Positions 1-12,721 of a stretch of 12,729 nucleotides of DNA are shown here, one piece after another. The stretch covers positions 1-12,729 of the forward strand of contig JAWXAY010000111.1 of assembly GCA_034439715.1 (NCBI GenBank), read 5' to 3'. Within the stretch, counting starts at the first letter, position 1; each line of letters begins with the position of its first letter. Below the pieces are notes generated by a model that was not told the origin of the DNA, made no database searches, and saw only the letters and a program-made list of their open reading frames with translations. Source of the DNA: Pseudomonadota bacterium. Lineage in GTDB: Bacteria; Bdellovibrionota; Bdellovibrionia; Bdellovibrionales; SG-bin7. The position numbers were made by a program, and so were the translations under genes.

Positions 1-124
1 AAAATCTAAAAAAGACTCTCTCAGGACCCTTTAAGACCTCTAAACGAATACAACTAGACTTAGGATCCAAAAAATATATGCTTTAAATTGCCTATGCTTA
101 AATAAATTGTATCCTATTGATATT

Positions 125-940
125 ATGAATATTTTTGATTATGACGACTATAAGGTGTTCACAAAATCCAAAATAACGGCTATGCCTAAGCGTGGTCGGG
201 GGCAGTGGCTGAACATGGCCAGAAGCCTTCGCTTACATACCTCATTAATAAGTCAGATATTTCAAGGAGACAAAAATTTAACTTTTGAACAAGCTTATTC
301 TGTCGCAGAATTTTTGGGTCTAATAAATCTGGATTTAGAATATTATGTGGCATTAGTTCAGCTCGAGCGGGCCGGTACTCATAAAATTAAAAATTTACTT
401 GAGAAGCAAATCCGTGAAATAAAATTGAAATCAACAAAACTTGTAAATCGAATTGGGCAGTCAAAGCAGTTAAATAAAAATGATCAAGCCACTTTTTACT
501 CAAATTGGTTTTACAGTGCGACTCGTTTGTTAACGTCGATTCCTGGCATGAACTCATTGGAGGCCATATCACAGAGTTTGGATTTATCAAAAACTCAAAT
601 CGCAGAAACTTTAGAGTTTCTTTTATCTTGTGGTTTGGTTTTAGAAAAAAATGGCCTGCTAACTTATGGTCCGTTAAAAACACATCTACCTGCTACGTCG
701 CCCCTAGTAGGTCGCCACCATATCAACTGGCGACTCAAGGCAATTGAAAGGGCCAATAAATTAACTGGGGACGAATTAATGTTTACGCTACCCGTAACCT
801 TGTCAAAAAAAGACTTTACTAAATTAAGAAATATGATTTTACAGTTTATTGAAAACGCAGAAAAAATCTATTCTCCTTCAGATCCCGAAACCTTGGCATT
901 TATGAATATCGACTGGCTTCTACTTAATAAGCCATCTTAA
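125..940 (+). CDS. TIGR02147 / DUF4423-like family protein, probable DNA-binding regulator (Xre-like HTH plus winged-helix-like segment)
   Basis: The ORF runs 107..940 from a TTG, but the ATG at 125 (MNIFDYDDYK) matches the family's typical 'IFxYxDY' N-terminus. It has an HTH-like 'MARSLRLHTSLISQIFQGDKNLT', 'FYSNWFYSATRLL', a wHTH-like 'LEAISQSLDLSKTQIAETLEFLLSCGLV', 'HHINWR' and a C-terminal 'FMNIDW'. Family recognised from motifs, no HMM run. Confidence 0.8.
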   Translation: MNIFDYDDYKVFTKSKITAMPKRGRGQWLNMARSLRLHTSLISQIFQGDKNLTFEQAYSVAEFLGLINLDLEYYVALVQLERAGTHKIKNLLEKQIREIKLKSTKLVNRIGQSKQLNKNDQATFYSNWFYSATRLLTSIPGMNSLEAISQSLDLSKTQIAETLEFLLSCGLVLEKNGLLTYGPLKTHLPATSPLVGRHHINWRLKAIERANKLTGDELMFTLPVTLSKKDFTKLRNMILQFIENAEKIYSPSDPETLAFMNIDWLLLNKPS

Positions 941-978
941 ACTTGTTTGCGATTAAGAAATTTATCAGTTGAGGCGTC

Positions 979-2301
979 CTAAGCCAAATCTGCTATTCCG
1001 TTGCTATTGCCAAATGATGATCCAGCATAGCCCATTATCTTAAGCATTGCCATATAGACATTCGCAAATCTCACTTCAGTTTTTGGCATTATTGCTCTGC
1101 CTGATAAAATCTGACCACCGGCCTTACCAGCCAACAATAAAGTGAGACGATTTGTAGTGTGCGAGTTCGCACCCATTTGCATGCCCGATCCAAATAGCAG
1201 CATACTATTATCTAATAGGGTCTTACCATTTGGTTCCGTAATAGCTTTCATCCTCCCCAGCAGATACGCATACTGACCAACATACCACCGAATAATTTTT
1301 TTATACTTCTCGGCGTAAGACGGATCGAGTGAATAATGAGAAACAAGATGATGATTGTCGATCACTCCGAGAAAACTAAAATCACCCGAACTCATTCTAT
1401 TTGTAATCACACGAGTCAGATCACATTGAAACGCAATTACCATCAAATCAAGCATCAATTTTGTATGGGTCGCAAAGACCGCTGAGTCTGTCCTAACGCC
1501 GCTATTGCATTGCTTTGTTGAGGTAGGAAGTGGAGTACTATTAATTTCTATTTCGACTTCGCGAATTGAAGTTAGATACTGGTCCATTTTTACTCTGTCT
1601 GATTTTCCTAATTCTCTCGTCAAACTACTTAATGATTCTTTTGTCGAATCAAGAATACTTTTTTTGTAAGCGCGAATTTTTGCGGCTTCAGCATTAGTTT
1701 GAGTTGTCGAAACAGCGCCACCAGCAAACAGAGCATCAAAGGCCTCTGCGGGGCTATTTACTCGAGGAGCCGCAGTAGTATTCGTGGCCCAAGATAATGT
1801 TTTGGTGTAATAAGAACTGTAGACGGAATCGCCTTTTCCACCATGATCACGATAAGTCATGTTGATTGATCTGACACGCGTCTGACTAGCCACTAAATTT
1901 GCAATATATTGATCAGCAGAAATTCCCGACCGAATATCGGTTAAAGATGGATTATTGACGGCACAACTTAAAAAAGTTCCAAATTCACGAGCATGAACGC
2001 CTGGTGCGTCGGGATTTAAAGTATTTTGTGTGAGATTTGAAAGCATGGTGATGTCACTCCGGTAAGCTTGGAGGCCCTGAAGCTCAGTTGGAAATTGATA
2101 AGCCGCACCCAAACCAACTGGAAGCCAGCTATCATAAAAACTGCCCCACGGAAAAACCAAGAATGCTGTTCTAATGGGAATGCCGGCGATAACAGAGGCT
2201 GCAGTTGCCCTTAGTGGAATCATGGCTTCCAAAAACGGGAGCATGATCATCGCACCACCTGCTTTAAGGAATGTTCTTCGATCCAAATGTGATTTCTTCA
2301 T
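979..2301 (-). CDS. DUF1552 domain-containing protein with twin-arginine (Tat) signal
   Basis: 440 aa. N-terminal 'LDRRTFLKAGGAMIMLPFLEAM' plus family-typical motifs 'ISADQYIA', 'KSILD', 'DRVKMDQYLTSIREVE', 'LMLDLMVIAFQCDLTRVIT', 'HHLVSH', 'TLLDNSMLLFGS' and 'LLLAGKAGG'. The ATG overlaps the upstream gene's TAA (TAATG at 2299-2303) and has a GGGGGA SD. Confidence 0.9.
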   Translation of the reverse strand: MKKSHLDRRTFLKAGGAMIMLPFLEAMIPLRATAASVIAGIPIRTAFLVFPWGSFYDSWLPVGLGAAYQFPTELQGLQAYRSDITMLSNLTQNTLNPDAPGVHAREFGTFLSCAVNNPSLTDIRSGISADQYIANLVASQTRVRSINMTYRDHGGKGDSVYSSYYTKTLSWATNTTAAPRVNSPAEAFDALFAGGAVSTTQTNAEAAKIRAYKKSILDSTKESLSSLTRELGKSDRVKMDQYLTSIREVEIEINSTPLPTSTKQCNSGVRTDSAVFATHTKLMLDLMVIAFQCDLTRVITNRMSSGDFSFLGVIDNHHLVSHYSLDPSYAEKYKKIIRWYVGQYAYLLGRMKAITEPNGKTLLDNSMLLFGSGMQMGANSHTTNRLTLLLAGKAGGQILSGRAIMPKTEVRFANVYMAMLKIMGYAGSSFGNSNGIADLA

Positions 2302-4010
2302 TAAATTCCCCCATCGCCTTTTTGCTTTAAGAAAATATCATTGGTGACAAGCGCATAGACTAAATCGGCAAATGTTTTTTTCGAATCTATATTAGCTAAG
2401 GCAAGGTTTTGAATTCGACAATTTTCAAATGGCTTAAGCTCGCGCCCGAGAGCAAAAGAGGTAATTTTTTTTGAGAAACAAGTTTTGAATTGTGGTCTCT
2501 CATCTAAAAGATCCGCAAGCCCGGTTGCACCGGCGAAGGATTTTCCGTCTGGAAGTTTTCCTGTATCATCAATTGTGTCACCCTCTAATGTCGTACGCCA
2601 TTGCCCAATCGGGTTAAGTTTTTCTAAGCTAAAACCTATTGGGTCCATTACCGAATGACAAGAATAACAGGTGGGATTTTTACTGTGATATTCGATTCTC
2701 TGTCTGCGAGTACCGACAAAACCTTCGGGAGGGTTCCCAAGTGAAATATTACTTGGTGGTTCAGGGGGCGCGGAACACATAAGATTTTCCATAACCCATT
2801 TTCCGCGAATCACAGGAGACGTTTCATTTGCATGAGAGGTAATGGTGAGTAAAGACCCTTGAGTAATTAAACCTCTTCGCTCTGTTCCCACCAGAGAAAC
2901 TTTACGAAATTGATCTGCCGTATAGGTTTTTCCATCAACTGCCTTAGCGCTTATGCCATAGTGGTTAGCTAAATTTTCATTTATAAATGTATAATCTGCC
3001 TTCACGAAGTCTGACACTGAAGCTGTTCCACGAAAAACACTGGCGATCATGGATTTAGTTTCGATCAACATATCATCTTTAAGTTTTGCAGTGAGTGCCG
3101 GAAAAAGTGCCATATCAGCGTCATGCGTACTGAGTGATGAAAGATCCAGCCACTGACTGGCAAAAATGTCGACAAGTGACTGTGCCTTACTATCCTTTAA
3201 CATGCGATTAACTTGCTCTTTCAAAACACTACTATTTTTTAGACTTCCCGTTGCGGCTAAGGCGAACAAGGTATCGTCTGGCATTGAACTCCAAATGAAA
3301 TAAGATAAACGCGTCGCCAATTCATAGTCGTTGATCTGAACCACCACATTAGGATTGTCCGGGGCGCTATGTTTCTCAATGCGAAACAAAAAATTTGGGG
3401 ACATCAATATTTTTTGAATTCCCAAATAAATGGCTTTTTCAAACCCATCTCCCTGACTAGAAGCAACGTCCACTACCGTTTCCAGTTGGACCAACTCTAG
3501 TTCAGAAATGGGGCGACGATAAGCCCTTTTAGCAATGGCACCTAAAATTTTCCTGGCGCAAGCTTTAGCAGAGAGAGTGGCGCTCGGGCTACAAATCATA
3601 AATTTACTTGGGGTCTTAAAAACTTCATTCGCGATAGTTTGAGAAGCGTCCAAATATTTTCCCGCTAGAATCCCATCGATACTTAAGACATCTGAATTAT
3701 TATCAAAATTTAATCCTGATGGATCAATACCAAATGTGTCTGCAGGTCTAATGGCAATGCCAAATAAATCACGGATGGTATTATTATATTCATTTTTATT
3801 GAGTCTCCTCACAGTCACTCGCATCGGATCGTCAACTATCTTACAGGCAATAGGCGTGGCTTCAAAAGGGTTATTTATACTCGACGCTGATGTGGATAGT
3901 GTCTTTGAATCAAAGGACTTATATCCAGCGCAATTCTGAAATAAAAAGGCATTAGCTAAGATAAATCCGAGCAAAATAGATAAGTAGAAATTATTTTTAA
4001 TATTGCTCAA
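2301..4010 (-). CDS. DUF1592-family multidomain protein (DUF1587/DUF1595/DUF1592/DUF1588/DUF1585 architecture), predicted c-type heme lipoprotein
   Basis: Motifs 'RRLNKNEYNNTIRDLFG', 'FDNN', 'RAYRRP', 'SPNFLFR', 'YELATRLSYFIWSSMPDDTL', 'RRGLITQGSLL', 'TSPVIRGKWVMENLMCSAPPEPP' and a CxxCH (CYSCH, 2655-2669). The ORF track starts at 4082. The TTG at 4010 is preferred because it has a GGGGT SD-like sequence upstream and gives a normal-length signal ending in LFQN-C (Cys27). Confidence 0.88.
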   Translation of the reverse strand: MSNIKNNFYLSILLGFILANAFLFQNCAGYKSFDSKTLSTSASSINNPFEATPIACKIVDDPMRVTVRRLNKNEYNNTIRDLFGIAIRPADTFGIDPSGLNFDNNSDVLSIDGILAGKYLDASQTIANEVFKTPSKFMICSPSATLSAKACARKILGAIAKRAYRRPISELELVQLETVVDVASSQGDGFEKAIYLGIQKILMSPNFLFRIEKHSAPDNPNVVVQINDYELATRLSYFIWSSMPDDTLFALAATGSLKNSSVLKEQVNRMLKDSKAQSLVDIFASQWLDLSSLSTHDADMALFPALTAKLKDDMLIETKSMIASVFRGTASVSDFVKADYTFINENLANHYGISAKAVDGKTYTADQFRKVSLVGTERRGLITQGSLLTITSHANETSPVIRGKWVMENLMCSAPPEPPSNISLGNPPEGFVGTRRQRIEYHSKNPTCYSCHSVMDPIGFSLEKLNPIGQWRTTLEGDTIDDTGKLPDGKSFAGATGLADLLDERPQFKTCFSKKITSFALGRELKPFENCRIQNLALANIDSKKTFADLVYALVTNDIFLKQKGDGGI

Positions 4011-4378
4011 AATTACCCCGTACTGATAGTATGCGTTCAAAATACTTCGCAGGATATTGATATAATGCGTCCAATATTTCAATGTAATATCAATAAGATG
4101 GCGAAAAAAAATAGCAAACTTTATTTGATTAGGAAAATTTTAATTTTTACCCCAAAACGTGGGGCTTAATGGCCGAACGACCCATCACTAAAAAAACTAC
4201 GAAGTCAGAGCAATCGCGCTCTCACCCCATGTTAGAAACAAGTGATTTAGACTGAGCCCCTTACATTGGACACTGCCTTAAATAGTTAATGAACAAGCGA
4301 TTAGCATATCCGTCCATTTTAGCACGGGTCACATTTGTCGCTAACACCGCGCTTTAAATACTGTATGTTCGGTGAACA

Positions 4379-8342: not shown

Positions 8343-8660
8343 ATGAAGCAACTTGTTTTTTACTCCACTAGTTCAGGCAAAGAGCCTTGTCGGGATTGGC
8401 TCAATGACCTTCAGTTGACAGAGCAAGCTGCTATCTACGCTTATATTGATAGAATAGCTATGGGTGCTGCCAAGAAAAACATAAAGCCCGTTGGTGGCGG
8501 AGTATTTGAGATTAAAATTGATCGTGGTCCTGGCTATAGAGTTTATTTCGGCCAAATTGGCCAAAAGATTATTTTACTTTTACTTGGTGGAGATAAGGGC
8601 TCACAAAACAGAGATATTCGTTTAGCAAAAGACTTTTGGAGGGATTATGAAACGCGGTAA
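8343..8660 (+). CDS. Type II toxin, RelE/ParE superfamily (HigB / 'addiction module killer' HI1419-like)
   Basis: 105 aa with family motifs 'YSTSSGKEPCRDWLNDL', 'KPVGGGVFEIKIDRGPGYRVYF' and 'ILLLLGGDKGSQNRDIRLAK'. Confidence 0.93.
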   Translation: MKQLVFYSTSSGKEPCRDWLNDLQLTEQAAIYAYIDRIAMGAAKKNIKPVGGGVFEIKIDRGPGYRVYFGQIGQKIILLLLGGDKGSQNRDIRLAKDFWRDYETR

Positions 8661-8943
8661 ATCGTATGATGAAGAACTTAGTCACAAATTTAAAAGTATA
8701 AAGTTTGCCCAAGCTTATATTCTTGCACTCATGGAAGGCGACGAAGGCTTAAGCGTTGAAGCCGCGCTCAAGCACACCATTGAGCGAATGGGCATTAAAG
8801 AATTTGTTCAGCTAGCAAAAGTACCGCAACCAAATGTTTCTGAATTTTTAAAGGGCAAACGAAAATTAAAACCCGAAACATTGAATGAGTATCTCAAACC
8901 ATTTAAGTTAAAAGCAAAACTGATGCTAGAAAAGGCCTCGTGA
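8647..8943 (+). CDS. Cognate HTH antitoxin (HigA / HI1420-like, Xre HTH)
   Basis: 98 aa, overlapping the toxin by 14 nt, with a GGAGG SD just upstream. It has 'FAQAYILALME' and the HTH 'GIKEFVQLAKVPQPNVSEFLKGKRKLKPETL'. The toxin-first order is typical of higBA-like modules. Confidence 0.85.
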   Translation: MKRGKSYDEELSHKFKSIKFAQAYILALMEGDEGLSVEAALKHTIERMGIKEFVQLAKVPQPNVSEFLKGKRKLKPETLNEYLKPFKLKAKLMLEKAS

Positions 8944-8949
8944 GGGGTT

Positions 8950-8968
8950 CACCCGGTCGGGTGTTCTT
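8950..8968 (+). terminator. Weak GC hairpin after the antitoxin stop, possible terminator
   Basis: CACCC-GGTC-GGGTG followed by TTCTT, starting 7 nt after the TGA. The stem is short and the U-tract is poor. Confidence 0.3.
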
Positions 8969-8978
8969 ACCGATTTGA
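8969..8978 (+). repeat. 10-bp direct repeat ACCGATTTGA, left junction copy
   Basis: Identical to 10264-10273. Confidence 0.9.
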
Positions 8979-10266
8979 GCGTACCGACTAAAGGGTAACA
9001 CCTTATACCGGACACATAGGTTACACTTTCTGGCATAGGAGGAAAGTCTTATGCCTTGGAAGGTGTGTAGCATCATGGACGAGAAGCTTAAATTTATTGC
9101 AAAAATAATAGATGGCGAGAAAATGGCTTCGCTATGTAGAGAGTTCGGGATTTCGCGGAAGACAGGTTACAAGATTTGGGAAAATTACAAGGAATGCGGT
9201 TTGGTGGCTTTTACTGACCGTAGTCGTAGACCCTACAAACAAGCCAATCAACTGCCATTTCAAATCGAAAAATTAATTGTTCAATTAAAAAAAGAGAAAC
9301 CAAGTTGGGGTGCACCCAAAATTAGAGAAAAAATTAGAAGAAAGTATCCAAATTTAAAGCTCCCTGCAAAAAGTACAGTCCATGCTGTTCTGGATCGAAA
9401 TGGGTTAGTGAATGTGAGAAGGAGAAGAAGATATAAGGCGGAAGGAACAAATTTATCTCACACGAACATTCCAAACGATTTATGGTGTGCCGATTACAAA
9501 GGAGAATTTCTAATGGGTAATCAAACTTACTGTTACCCACTTACGATTACTGATTTTAGCTCGAGATATTTATTATCTTGCGAGGCTTTAGAAACTACGA
9601 AAGAAAAATTTGCATTTACAGTTTTTGAGAGAGCATTTAAGGAGTTTGGATTGCCAAAAGCCATTCGCACTGACAATGGCAATCCATTTTCAAGTGTACA
9701 CGCAATGTTTGGCCTAAGTCGTTTATCAGTGTGTTGGTTACGACTCGGAATTGAGCTTGAACGAATAAAACCAGGTCACCCTGAGCAAAACGGTAGACAT
9801 GAAAGAATGCACCTTACTTTAAAAAACGAAGCCACCAGACCAGCAGGACAAAACCTTTTTCAACAACAAGAAAAATTTGATAATTTTATTCAAGAATATA
9901 ACTTTGAAAGACCACATCAAGCTCTTGAAATGAAATATCCTGGCGAAATCTACAAGCCTTCTCCACGACTTTATGAAGGCCTGCCAGATGTTGAATATCC
10001 TATGCACGACAAAACTCTGACTGTAACTGATTGCGGAAGAATTTGCTTAGATGGACGAAAGATTAATTTTAGTAGAGTTTTTGCAGGACAGAATGTCGGA
10101 ATCAAACAAGTTGATGATAGAATCTGGTTAGTGAGTTTTATGAATTATGACTTGGGATACTTTGATGAAGAAGCAGCGAGGGTGGAGCCTGGAGAAAACC
10201 CTTTCGGCGCGAAAGTGTTACCTATGTCATCGGTATAATGTGTAACCTATGTGTCCGGTACGGACC
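8976..10266 (+). mobile_element. IS481-family insertion sequence (about 1.29 kb), apparently intact
   Basis: A single transposase ORF is bounded by roughly 55-bp imperfect inverted repeats (8976-9030 and 10211-10266), each with two copies of a ~21-bp motif. 9006-9026 is the exact reverse complement of 10240-10260, and 9003-9030 matches 10211-10238 at 24/28. The direct repeat ACCGATTTGA spans both junctions. Ends are uncertain by 3 bp (alternative 8979-10263). Confidence 0.9.
9051..10238 (+). CDS. IS481-family DDE transposase (HTH + rve integrase core)
   Basis: 395 aa with an AGGAGG SD at 9037-9042. It starts 'MPWK' and has the HTH 'MASLCREFGISRKTGYK', 'WGAPKI', and a DDE triad in 'WCADYKG', 'IRTDNG' and 'QNGRHERMH', plus 'YNFERPHQAL'. 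The stop codon lies inside the right inverted repeat. Confidence 0.95.
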   Translation: MPWKVCSIMDEKLKFIAKIIDGEKMASLCREFGISRKTGYKIWENYKECGLVAFTDRSRRPYKQANQLPFQIEKLIVQLKKEKPSWGAPKIREKIRRKYPNLKLPAKSTVHAVLDRNGLVNVRRRRRYKAEGTNLSHTNIPNDLWCADYKGEFLMGNQTYCYPLTITDFSSRYLLSCEALETTKEKFAFTVFERAFKEFGLPKAIRTDNGNPFSSVHAMFGLSRLSVCWLRLGIELERIKPGHPEQNGRHERMHLTLKNEATRPAGQNLFQQQEKFDNFIQEYNFERPHQALEMKYPGEIYKPSPRLYEGLPDVEYPMHDKTLTVTDCGRICLDGRKINFSRVFAGQNVGIKQVDDRIWLVSFMNYDLGYFDEEAARVEPGENPFGAKVLPMSSV

Positions 10267-10273
10267 GATTTGA
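10264..10273 (+). repeat. 10-bp direct repeat ACCGATTTGA, right junction copy
   Basis: Identical to 8969-8978. Ends 3 nt from the tRNA CCA. Confidence 0.9.
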
Positions 10274-10276
10274 AGT

Positions 10277-10353
10277 TGGTCGGGGCGACAGGATTCGAAC
10301 CTGCGACCTCTTGCTCCCGAAGCAAGCGCGCTACCAGGCTGCGCTACGCCCCG
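10277..10353 (-). tRNA. tRNA-Pro (anticodon CGG)
   Basis: 77 nt: CGGGGCGTAGCGCAGCCTGGTAGCGCGCTTGCTTCGGGAGCAAGAGGTCGCAGGTTCGAATCCTGTCGCCCCGACCA. Acceptor stem CGGGGCG/CGCCCCG, anticodon arm CTTGC-TTCGGGA-GCAAG, T-loop GTTCGAATC, encoded CCA. Confidence 0.98.
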
Positions 10354-10356
10354 ACT

Positions 10357-11568
10357 CTATAAGACATGTGTTTTAATACTTGTAGGTAACTTAGCAATAG
10401 CTTCTGCGACACTCTCAACCTGTCCACGCGCAAAATCCATTACTAAATAACCAATTTGTGGGTCCGTTGCCAAGTGCTGACTCTCAATATTCGCTCCCGC
10501 CTTCGAAACAATACTATTTACTTCTCCCAAAACGCCCGGCACGTTTTTGTGGACGTTAATAATTCGCTGACAGTTTGGTTTTTTTGCCTGCACGTCTACA
10601 TTTGGAAAATTAACCGCACCGTAAGTAGAACCTAATTTAAGAAACCTTACCATACTCTCAGCAACCTCACGTCCAATGGCCTCTTGGGCCTCTTCGGTAC
10701 TGCCACCAATATGAGGAGTGAGAATTACATTGGGAAGAGTTTGAAGTTCAGTTTTAAATTTTTCGTCATTACTTTCTGGTTCATGCGGGTAAACATCAAC
10801 GGCTGCGCCATGCAGGTGATTTGATTTTAAAACACTGACCAGATCTTCGATCGCCACCACACTACCGCGACTGGCATTGATGAGATAGCTGCCAGCTTTC
10901 ATTTTGAGAAATTGTTTTTTGGTCATCATGTTTTTGGTGTTTTCAGTTTCTGGTACATGCAGAGTTACAAAATCAGAAATCTTTAAAAGTTCATCCAGAG
11001 AACCTAGCGAAGTGGAGTTTCCCAGAGGTAATTTTTTAATAGTATCGTAGTAAACAACATTAAGACCCATTGATTCCGCCAGCACACTCACCTGGCTGCC
11101 AATATGGCCATAACCCACAATACCCAAAGTCTTGCCGCGAATCGTATAACAATTTTTTGCAGATTTATCCCACATTCCTTCATGTGCCTTTTGACTGACG
11201 TCGAAAAGTCTACGTGCGAGTGCAATGATTTCACCAATCACAAGTTCAGCCACGCTGCGAGTACTGCTGTAGGGCGCATTAAAAACTGGGAGCCCCATTT
11301 TATTTGCCTGAATAAGATTGATTTGATTGGTCCCAATACAAAATGCGCCAATGACGGAAACATTTTTTATTTTTTCTAGTACATCTTCGCTCAAATGGGT
11401 TTTTGAACGAATCCCAAGCGCAAGATATTCGGTGGTCGACATAGCCTTGATAATTTCATTTTCTGTGAGCGCTTTACTGAGAGTTTCGACGGCAAAGCCA
11501 CCTGATTTTAGTAGATCAGCTGCGGCTGGGTGGATATTCTCTAAGAGAAGAATCTTATTAGATCTCAC
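10357..11568 (-). CDS. serA: D-3-phosphoglycerate dehydrogenase (E. coli-type, C-terminal ACT domain)
   Basis: 403 aa with a GTG start. Motifs 'KILLLENIH', 'GIRSKT', 'GAFCIGTNQ', '[15 protein letters not shown]', Rossmann 'GIVGYGHIG', 'INASRG', '[10 protein letters not shown]', '[13 protein letters not shown]' and ACT 'HKNVPGVL'. Confidence 0.97.
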
Positions 11569-11677
11569 GGTTTAGATCATTCCCGAATGTCCTTAAATTG
11601 TCACCCCATTTGAAATCATTACCGAGGACGGCCTGCTTAAATAATGATATATTTATGGGTTTAATGCGGAGAATCTA

Positions 11678-12721
11678 TTGGCCACGTTTAAAGTTCTCTT
11701 AGTTGATGATGATCCTTTGATTCACGAAGCTGTGGATCTTGTACTCCCAAAAACTTGGCGGGTAACTCATGCTTACTCAGCGGGCGAGCTCGCAGGTTTT
11801 GATTTTCATGCGGCCCTTGTTGATATGCATTTAGAAGGTAATCAATCCGAAGCCCAAGGGCTAAAGGTTATCGAAAACCTACATCAAAAAAATCCCCATA
11901 TCGAAATCATCGCCATTTCTGGAAATCTCAATCAAGAACTTCTTGAAAATTGCTTGTTGGCAGGCGCCTATCGCTTTCTGCCTAAACCTTTGAGCCCCGA
12001 GGAACTGGCTTTAACTCTCGATAAAGTTGAAGCGCTCTGGCTTTTAAAAGAGGCCGCCTTTAGTCGTCCACATTCTCAAAAAATTGGTTGGATAGGTGAT
12101 GGCAAAACGTCACAAGATATTCGACGGCAAATTGCTTCTCTTAAAGGTGAAGATGGCCCAGTATTAATTGAAGGTGATTCTGGAACTGGTAAAGAAGTTG
12201 TGGCTCAACTTTTACACGATCAAGAACCGACGCGCCCCTGGATTCAAATAAATGCGGCCGCCATTCCCACTCACCTTTTCGAATCAGAATTTTTTGGGCA
12301 CACACGAGGCTCGTTTACGGGAGCGAATCAAAATAAAATGGGACTTGCTGAGGCGGCTCATGGTGGCGATTTATTTATTGATGAAATTGAAGCTCTCCCT
12401 ATTGACCAGCAAGCCAAACTTTTGCGATTTTTAGAGACTGGAGAAGTGCGCCGCATTGGCGCACAAAATTCGATTCGGGTAAAAGTAAGAGTCATCGCCG
12501 CGACCAACCGTAGTTTGCAGCAAATGGCTAAGGTCGGCGAGTTCCGAGAAGATTTATTGTGGCGAATTTGCGGTAAAAAAATAAATCTGCCAAAACTTTC
12601 TGAACATCCTGAAGATATCGCACAACTGGCTAATTTCTCCAAAATCGCAAATCTGTGCTTCTATCACAGGGTTGCGGTAAAGGCTAAATCGTTGTCCAAT
12701 AAGTATTGGGGAAGTGTCTGA
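11678..12721 (+). CDS. sigma54-dependent response regulator (NtrC family, REC + AAA+), C-terminally truncated
   Basis: TTG start with a GGAGA SD. REC motifs 'LLVDDD', 'LVDM' and 'LPKP'. Walker A GDSGTGKE, 'ESEFFGHTRGSFTGA', Walker B 'LFIDEI', 'QAKLLRFLE', 'RVIAATNR' and 'FREDL'. Family similarity stops at about 12637, and there is no WPGNxREL motif or Fis HTH. Confidence 0.9.
   Translation: MATFKVLLVDDDPLIHEAVDLVLPKTWRVTHAYSAGELAGFDFHAALVDMHLEGNQSEAQGLKVIENLHQKNPHIEIIAISGNLNQELLENCLLAGAYRFLPKPLSPEELALTLDKVEALWLLKEAAFSRPHSQKIGWIGDGKTSQDIRRQIASLKGEDGPVLIEGDSGTGKEVVAQLLHDQEPTRPWIQINAAAIPTHLFESEFFGHTRGSFTGANQNKMGLAEAAHGGDLFIDEIEALPIDQQAKLLRFLETGEVRRIGAQNSIRVKVRVIAATNRSLQQMAKVGEFREDLLWRICGKKINLPKLSEHPEDIAQLANFSKIANLCFYHRVAVKAKSLSNKYWGSV

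Follow-up and report, generated by a model that had tools for sequence, protein, structure and literature searches.

Why should a simple insertion sequence lie ten nucleotides behind the 3' end of a tRNA gene that it leaves whole? The question is raised by a 12,729-nt contig of a member of the Bdellovibrionota (JAWXAY010000111.1, assembly GCA_034439715.1; the whole stretch is hereafter called the window), in which an IS481-like element lies beside a tRNA-Pro gene. Bacterial elements that home to tRNA genes normally carry a site-specific recombinase, or are of the Tn7 type and possess an ATPase together with a dedicated or RNA-guided selector. Tyrosine-integrase islands use tRNA genes as safe harbours, recombining within the tRNA and duplicating its 3' end; Ty3 inserts at a specific position upstream of tRNA genes by way of Pol III factors. 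On the basis of comparisons with relatives, we conclude that the window element almost certainly belongs to a widespread IS481-like lineage with position-specific targeting of tRNA genes. In the parts of the literature searched we found no description of tRNA-end targeting by IS481-like elements; ISfinder, subscription journals and supplements may bear on this.

Boundaries of the element

A preliminary description, made from the sequence alone, reported that the 10-mer ACCGATTTGA is present twice (8969-8978 and 10264-10273), and that the right tip, ...GGTACGGACC, stops at 10266, 10 nt from the CCA of an intact tRNA-Pro gene and tail-to-tail with it. All these coordinates were reproduced. Two readings of the ends were offered: termini of the form TGAG.../...GACC, or an element spanning 8979-10263 within a 10-bp target duplication. 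Position weight matrices built from 69 right and 74 left homologue ends set the termini at 8976 (TGA) and 10266 (ACC), in agreement with the first reading (Table 1). The matrices were seeded on ends already carrying TG or ACC, and independent proof of the ends therefore comes from genomes with multiple copies. One of these (G061) contains seven copies that are identical across 1297 bp (TGTAGT...AGCACC), flanked by duplications of 3 bp (six copies) or 4 bp (one copy), and showing the same type of tip. Among relatives the left tip is TG followed by T, C or A; the right tip is mostly ACC, with ACA in a few.

Table 1. Features of the insertion and its target in the window.
Feature	Coordinates	Strand	Evidence
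IS481-like insertion sequence, 1291 bp, tips 5'-TGA...ACC-3'	8976..10266	+	homologue end matrices; tips in identical multi-copy relatives
Left copy of the 4-bp target duplication GATT	8972..8975	+	sequence; duplication statistics of relatives
Right copy of the 4-bp target duplication GATT	10267..10270	+	sequence; end matrices
Host ACC, matching the right tip, outside the element	8969..8971	+	flank scoring; site statistics
Host TGA, matching the left tip, at chance level in relatives	10271..10273	+	site statistics
Left end: TG tip and two tandem ~18-bp motifs, 24-nt period	8976..9030	+	inverted repeats I1, I2; matrix
Right end: non-canonical 5'-GGT tip and two tandem copies of the left-end motif, 25-nt period	10211..10266	-	direct repeat D1, inverted repeats I1, I2; matrix
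Transposase, 395 aa: two HTH domains, DDE core, C-terminal beta domain	9051-10238	+	Pfam, NF033577, alignment, AlphaFold, Foldseek
Spacer from right tip to tRNA CCA, 10 nt including the duplication	10267..10276	.	sequence, ARAGORN, matrices
tRNA-Pro(CGG), intact, with CCA; target gene	10277..10353	-	ARAGORN; Rfam RF00005
T-arm core GGTTCGAATCC with preferred loop TTCGAAT; putative recognition site	10291..10301	-	sequence; used-vs-unused tRNAs

A single open reading frame lies between the ends, and relatives measure about 1.3 kb. The right end faces the tRNA and overlaps the final codons of the transposase gene. Judging from the sequence, the tandem motifs at both ends are likely candidates for transposase-binding sites. 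Its own assembly (95.7% complete) held no other copies, solo ends or MITEs, making the window copy single, and an Rfam scan of the window returned only the tRNA, with no RNA encoded by the element. A hairpin is located within the right-end region (10201-10215). A conserved right-end terminator acting against read-through from the tRNA was considered and rejected, as 39 relatives gave no clear sign of enrichment (mean z -0.9 to 0.1). A perfect 6-bp hairpin without a T-run adjoins the insertion site on the left (8950-8963).

Target duplication

The longest flanking repeat at 148 distinct two-ended sites was 0 bp (57 sites), 1 bp (14), 2 bp (13), 3 bp (53) or 4 bp (11), with a maximum of 4. In a 128-site subset, duplications of 3 and 4 bp were observed 41 and 9 times, against 3.5 and 0.9 expected when flanks were paired with the wrong partner. 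The proposed 10-bp duplication is therefore rejected: nothing longer than 4 bp occurs at any of the 148 sites, and the identical copies define the ends. The 57 sites lacking a duplication may be collapsed assembly repeats or products of later recombination.

An empty allele is available in Sinorhizobium meliloti. On pSymB of strain 1021 the element stands 10 nt behind tRNA-Arg(CCG) with TTG on each side; two strains that lack it have a single TTG in diverged flanks, and represent a homologous, not isogenic, empty allele, which fits a 3-bp duplication. Together, the duplication statistics, the ends of multi-copy elements and the S. meliloti alleles identify the duplication in the window as GATT. 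Among the contigs of four of the 11 runs listed no joint skips the window element or abuts its ends, assembled contigs being unable to show absence.

On pSymB, elements of the lineage, often broken, lie 9-10 nt behind tRNA-Arg(CCG) in many strains and are missing in others (L097, L098). The same tRNA gene has been struck on a plasmid of R. leguminosarum, for which no empty allele was seen among the 25 of 150 records listed.

The transposase

Pfam recognises HTH and rve domains in the 395-aa product, and the IS481 model NF033577 is barely passed (224.4 bits against a cut-off of 224). The residues D148, D208 and E250 are invariant in an alignment of 58 sequences, and the protein is encoded by a single frame, with no OrfA/OrfB frameshift. 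An AlphaFold model (pLDDT 78.8, pTM 0.68) comprises two helical domains, an RNase H-like core and a C-terminal beta domain. Its best Foldseek matches are IstA of IS21 and TnsB of ShCAST, followed by retroviral integrases, with TM-scores that are low because the domains are rearranged; a sequence search of solved structures gave only weak integrase matches. In the ESM Atlas residues 305-395 resemble a cluster of Mu C-terminal domains (0.89), which we treat as a lead only. IstA and TnsB are ordinarily partnered by an ATPase; the window element encodes none. Family scans and the fold search detected no RNA-binding domain in the transposase.

Relatives lie at a fixed distance behind tRNA genes

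If proximity to the tRNA were due to chance, about 2e-5 of insertions would be expected to show it. We collected the best 80 of 573 genome loci (64-78% identity) and 80 of 589 metagenome loci, and deemed evaluable those with a right end and a flank of 36 nt or more; 33 loci of the two sets were dropped for want of an end or flank. The right end stands just behind the 3' end of a tRNA or tmRNA, tail-to-tail, in 109 of 127 evaluable relatives, 75 of them at intact genes and 34 at fragments. The 67 evaluable genome loci divide into 43 with an intact tRNA, 15 with a fragment retaining T-loop and CCA, four with TGG only and five with none; the corresponding figures for the 60 metagenome loci are 32, 19, five and four. 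Offsets are strongly concentrated (n=116), at 9 nt (62 loci) and 10 nt (50), with three at 11 and one at 12. Right ends are thus enriched behind tRNA 3' ends in one orientation, and the suggestion that this is a site-targeted, tRNA-adjacent insertion sequence with atypical tips is borne out. Among the 79 intact targets 13 amino acids are represented, along with a tmRNA and a gene of unassigned type; His and Cys were met later. The loci are not independent of one another, but those linked to tRNAs occur across Pseudomonadota, Acidobacteriota and Bdellovibrionota, and two loci on viral contigs each lie behind a tRNA remnant.

A census of ten genomes, chosen from the match list for long contigs or several copies, yielded 42 copies whose right end was present. 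Of these, 38 stand at +9 to +11 and one at a short remnant; two have no tRNA, and one is reversed, its left end 9 nt behind tRNA-Met. Of the seven identical copies in G061, all with their own duplications, five are at tRNAs and two are off the standard position. In another genome (G066) copies that differ by 0-1 base lie behind the intact tRNA-Asn gene and behind three 3' fragments of tRNA-Asn.

Within the order of the window organism 13 loci were found, nine of them evaluable: one has an intact tRNA at 9-11 nt, three have TGG-only remnants and five have nothing there. The nearest branch to the window in the tree likewise contains many short tRNA remnants. We infer that the same-order remnants are tRNA ends displaced by later integration of islands.

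One contig of G066 (C5; L221, L226, L229) carries three near-identical copies within 45 kb, at two tRNA-Asn 3' fragments and the intact gene; it is an island array in which each tRNA end has been struck.

The lineage accounts for genes and relics annotated 'integrase core domain' that many genomes have behind tRNAs, including the one behind tRNA-Arg(CCG) on S. meliloti pSymB. A one-gene DDE element is seen to reach tRNA genes by the dozen in a genome, to within about a base pair, leaving the tRNAs intact.

Lineages that differ in spacing and orientation

In a quick maximum-likelihood tree of 89 representatives (midpoint root), the fixed-offset elements fall within a group of 75 (SH-aLRT 99). 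Inside this group is a long branch (support 100), mostly from Bdellovibrionota, whose members land 16-358 nt behind the 3' end of a tRNA or tmRNA at nine of 14 evaluable loci and account for most of the non-tRNA misses. At these loci (L055, L084, L085, L149, L360, L364, L366, L368, L370) a sequence resembling an att arm is often seen by eye between gene and element. Outside the group of 75, a small group (support 99; 57-59% identity) places its left end 3-5 nt behind the tRNA CCA at four of five loci (L379, L380, L381 and L383, from G082, G104, G132 and G138), the targets being tRNA-Asp, -Pro or -Val or a remnant. Here the element is on the strand of the tRNA, which lies upstream of the transposase; the left tip is GGT at three loci, and the right tip is ACA where seen. 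As the GGT tip of the main lineage is the right one, it is mostly GGT that faces the tRNA in both groups.

Twelve distant relatives (31-55% identity, including ISEc19) gave no tRNA call within the 0.5-1.5 kb retrieved, where some flanks were short; several have 3-bp duplications and a GGT tip.

The three tRNA-linked groups share a CG(R/K)I motif and K337 in the C-terminal domain, both rare elsewhere. Measured by identity to the main consensus, the loose branch is most diverged in the first HTH (residues 9-62; 0.56 against 0.82), the left-end group in the C-terminal domain (residues 318-382; 0.47 against 0.73). Our guess from these sequence comparisons is that the first HTH or the C-terminal beta domain could be the reader. 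Three lineages that differ in spacing, orientation and loop preference offer a handle on target choice by simple insertion-sequence transposases.

At one locus (L159) a MITE-like piece, in which a left end is joined to a right end without a transposase, lies 3 nt from an intact element and ~85 nt left of the left end.

What is probably read in the tRNA gene

Comparison of used and unused tRNA genes in three complete genomes draws attention to the T-loop. TTCGAAT, the loop of the window tRNA-Pro(CGG), occurs in 11 of the 14 genes used and in 27 of the 119 not used (Fisher p 6e-5), and A59 in 12 of 14 against 46 of 119, in a post hoc comparison whose kin are not independent and which leaves out nine ARAGORN calls without a TTCRA loop and the reversed copy. 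None of 16 Leu genes has A59, and this lack of the preferred loop explains the missing Leu targets. With one target taken per cluster (42 clusters, 142 targets), A59 reaches a mean of 76% against a background of 43%; the largest cluster (34 targets) lacks the preference (10 of 34, against 80 of 108 elsewhere), marking the bias as lineage-specific.

Exceptional sites narrow the requirement. One element (L080) keeps the standard offset behind a tRNA-Thr without encoded CCA, and the CCA is therefore dispensable. At two plasmid sites (L105, L106) the T-loop motif stands in register, but the CCA is missing and just 2-3 pairs of the stem are present; a further site, on a short contig (L189), resembles them. 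The fragments, and the sites with a T-loop alone, may still be transcribed, or they may be tRNAs in decay. Taken together, the evidence favours read-out of the T-arm as a sequence of duplex DNA; a hairpin, an RNA guide and a tether that depends on the promoter are less favoured. The two cut positions have similar spreads, neither being more tightly fixed. Mimicry of the end-binding motif by the T-arm was set aside, only GG(T/A) being common to the two by eye, with different spacing. An array of ~15 atypical tRNA genes (G063:C1:3990500-3999100), several without a standard T-loop, bears the element on none.

We propose that a single transposase probably reads the T-arm as double-stranded DNA and cuts at a fixed offset. 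The transposase would be loaded onto two tandem sites at each end of the element, and one of its domains would contact GGTTCRA(A)TCC ~25 bp from the cut; strand transfer would then take place 6-7 and 9-11 nt past the position of the CCA. The tRNA would stay whole, making each tRNA gene or displaced 3' fragment a harmless landing site, and a later arrival could insert on the tRNA side of an older copy. Tips that differ (TG and GGT) would be compatible with a copy-out/paste-in route in which one end is the donor and the other the recipient (PMC7780238), the pathway of IS3, IS21, IS30 and IS256 with its circular intermediate of abutted ends. In its boldest form, a proposition that we regard as evenly poised, the 395-aa transposase would by itself read the near-universal T-arm DNA, and relatives would have retuned spacing, orientation and loop preference through one domain. 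Were this true, a single protein would suffice for safe-harbour integration across bacteria, and its targeting module could be exchanged.

A different view is that the address is some feature of the host: a tether at tRNA 3' ends, or DNA held open by heavy transcription of the gene. Candidates for the tether are RNA polymerase at termination, a nucleoid protein, or an integrase or Xer-like protein bound to att arms. The ISAba32 subgroup provides a precedent, inserting in one orientation 5-6 bp from XerCD sites without conserved sequence, and its authors hold, in the available text, that sequence alone is not recognised (10.1101/2022.12.17.520857). By eye, many of our insertions have the tRNA on one side and a terminator-like hairpin or an att arm of an island on the other, and the scatter of the loose lineage resembles regional tethering. 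Against this, the offset follows the tRNA, not the terminator; the bias in loop sequence is specific to lineages; plasmid sites that offer only a T-loop are struck in register; and the pattern is kept across several phyla. We consider a host address, by way of any of these tethers, possible but unlikely.

Guidance by an RNA that the element does not itself encode would accommodate the many tRNA types and the exact 3' fragments. It is an improbable explanation: the plasmid sites are struck in register with neither acceptor strand nor CCA, the offset at the tRNA-Thr is unchanged, and the transposase has no RNA-binding domain in the scans described above.

Likeness of the site to abutted element ends

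With the termini settled, the 10-bp repeat of the window resolves into the 4-bp duplication flanked by ACC, which matches the right tip, and TGA, which matches the left. The preliminary description saw in this, as one possibility, a target that mimics the abutted ends of the element (ACC-nnnn-TGA). On such a model the element would choose sites for this likeness, much as copy-out/paste-in elements make end-directed insertions, and the tRNA would be incidental or secondary. We compared 64 sites having a 3-4 bp duplication with simulated insertions behind unused tRNAs. On the far side, a match of at least three bases to the right tip occurs at eight of 64 sites against 1.6 expected (p 2e-4), several of the eight coming from related genomes. 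On the tRNA side, the left tip is matched at three bases by one of 64 sites, and at two bases by seven, against 4.8 expected. An extension of at least six bases, as in the window, is found at two of 64 sites and at ~0.0005 per simulated site, a rarity that speaks for mimicry, as does the far-side excess.

True junctions of this type also exist: at five loci a right end stands 2-3 nt left of a left end. Where such stacked junctions were inspected, the upstream end was that of another element, of a relic or of a MITE-like piece. This is the pattern to be expected when each new arrival inserts on the tRNA side of the copy already there. Different elements are thus brought together by successive use of the same tRNA, and the far-side ACC excess is due in part to such stacking behind older right ends. 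The window site itself was scored for a decayed earlier right end to the left of the element; the flank score of -26.5 led us to reject it. As 56 of 64 sites have no ACC match and TG is at chance, mimicry fails as an address and survives as a mild far-side excess; that it directs insertion is very improbable. The address is the tRNA gene itself, not likeness to ends, which may have helped at the window site.

That insertion is random and selection then leaves survivors beside tRNAs, or that integrase islands carry the element passively, can be dismissed as scarcely credible. DNA behind tRNAs is neutral, and tRNA fragments of the kind common at island ends make up 34 of the 109 tRNA-linked sites, but the offset has a two-base peak and a single orientation, identical recent copies with a duplication each lie at different tRNAs, 75 sites are behind intact genes, and 0 of 12 more distant relatives had a tRNA called in the flanks fetched.

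Relation to known elements

The available text of PMC11406308 gives IS481 ends as TGT/ACA, and that of PMC10045372, in whose main text the word tRNA is absent, gives duplications of 2-15 bp, mostly 6. The window element resembles the family in its single-ORF DDE transposase and in a duplication within that range; it differs in the tips of its lineage (TGN...ACC, not TGT...ACA) and in a duplication of 3-4 bp instead of the usual 6. By its sequence it is IS481-like, not a canonical IS481, the tips being different. The nearest named element found, ISEc19 (31% identity), has related tandem end motifs, but neither it nor the other 31-55% relatives fetched shows fixed-offset tRNA targeting.

As far as the available sources describe it, the nearest analogue in print is the ISAba32 subgroup (IS1202) at XerCD sites. 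These are one-gene relatives of IS481 that insert in one orientation at a fixed short distance, leave the target intact and stack. Unlike the window lineage they target xrs/dif, their distance equals their 5-6 bp duplication, the left end faces the target, and the tips are TGT.

Tn7-like elements and CASTs with tRNA att sites (PmcCAST, McCAST, type V-K) likewise insert in one orientation at a safe site by a tRNA. They have tandem transposase-binding sites, for which the two repeats per end of the window element are candidate counterparts, and TnsB is among the best structural matches of the modelled transposase. They are described in the available sources as needing TnsC together with TniQ/TnsD or a CRISPR guide, whereas the window element has one gene and its lineage uses many tRNA types within one genome. 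In eukaryotes, Dada are DDE transposons that target tRNA and other small-RNA genes, but by the available text of PMC3706591 they insert inside the gene, keep to one gene type per family, make 6-7 bp duplications and have no TIRs. The window element differs from a tyrosine-integrase island in that its enzyme is a DDE transposase and its contig has no second tRNA-Pro 3' fragment of at least 14 nt. Should it prove functional in a heterologous host, the element would offer a very compact tool for multi-site safe-harbour integration.

Surroundings of the insertion

A gene for a RelE/ParE-type toxin (TIGR02683) and an overlapping frame for a 98-aa likely antitoxin occupy 8343-8943, ending 32 nt left of the element. 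On the other side, 10277-12721 corresponds to 92605-94957 of another contig of the same assembly (G000, C80), with a syntenic sigma-54 regulator, serA and tRNA-Pro(CGG), and no insertion sequence; the two serA genes are 86% identical. The window contig may derive from another, related organism, or the blocks may reflect an old duplication, and tetranucleotide profiles do not separate them. Further upstream, 107-4082 encodes a TIGR02147 protein and a DUF1552/DUF1592-family gene pair, each with several paralogues in the genome.
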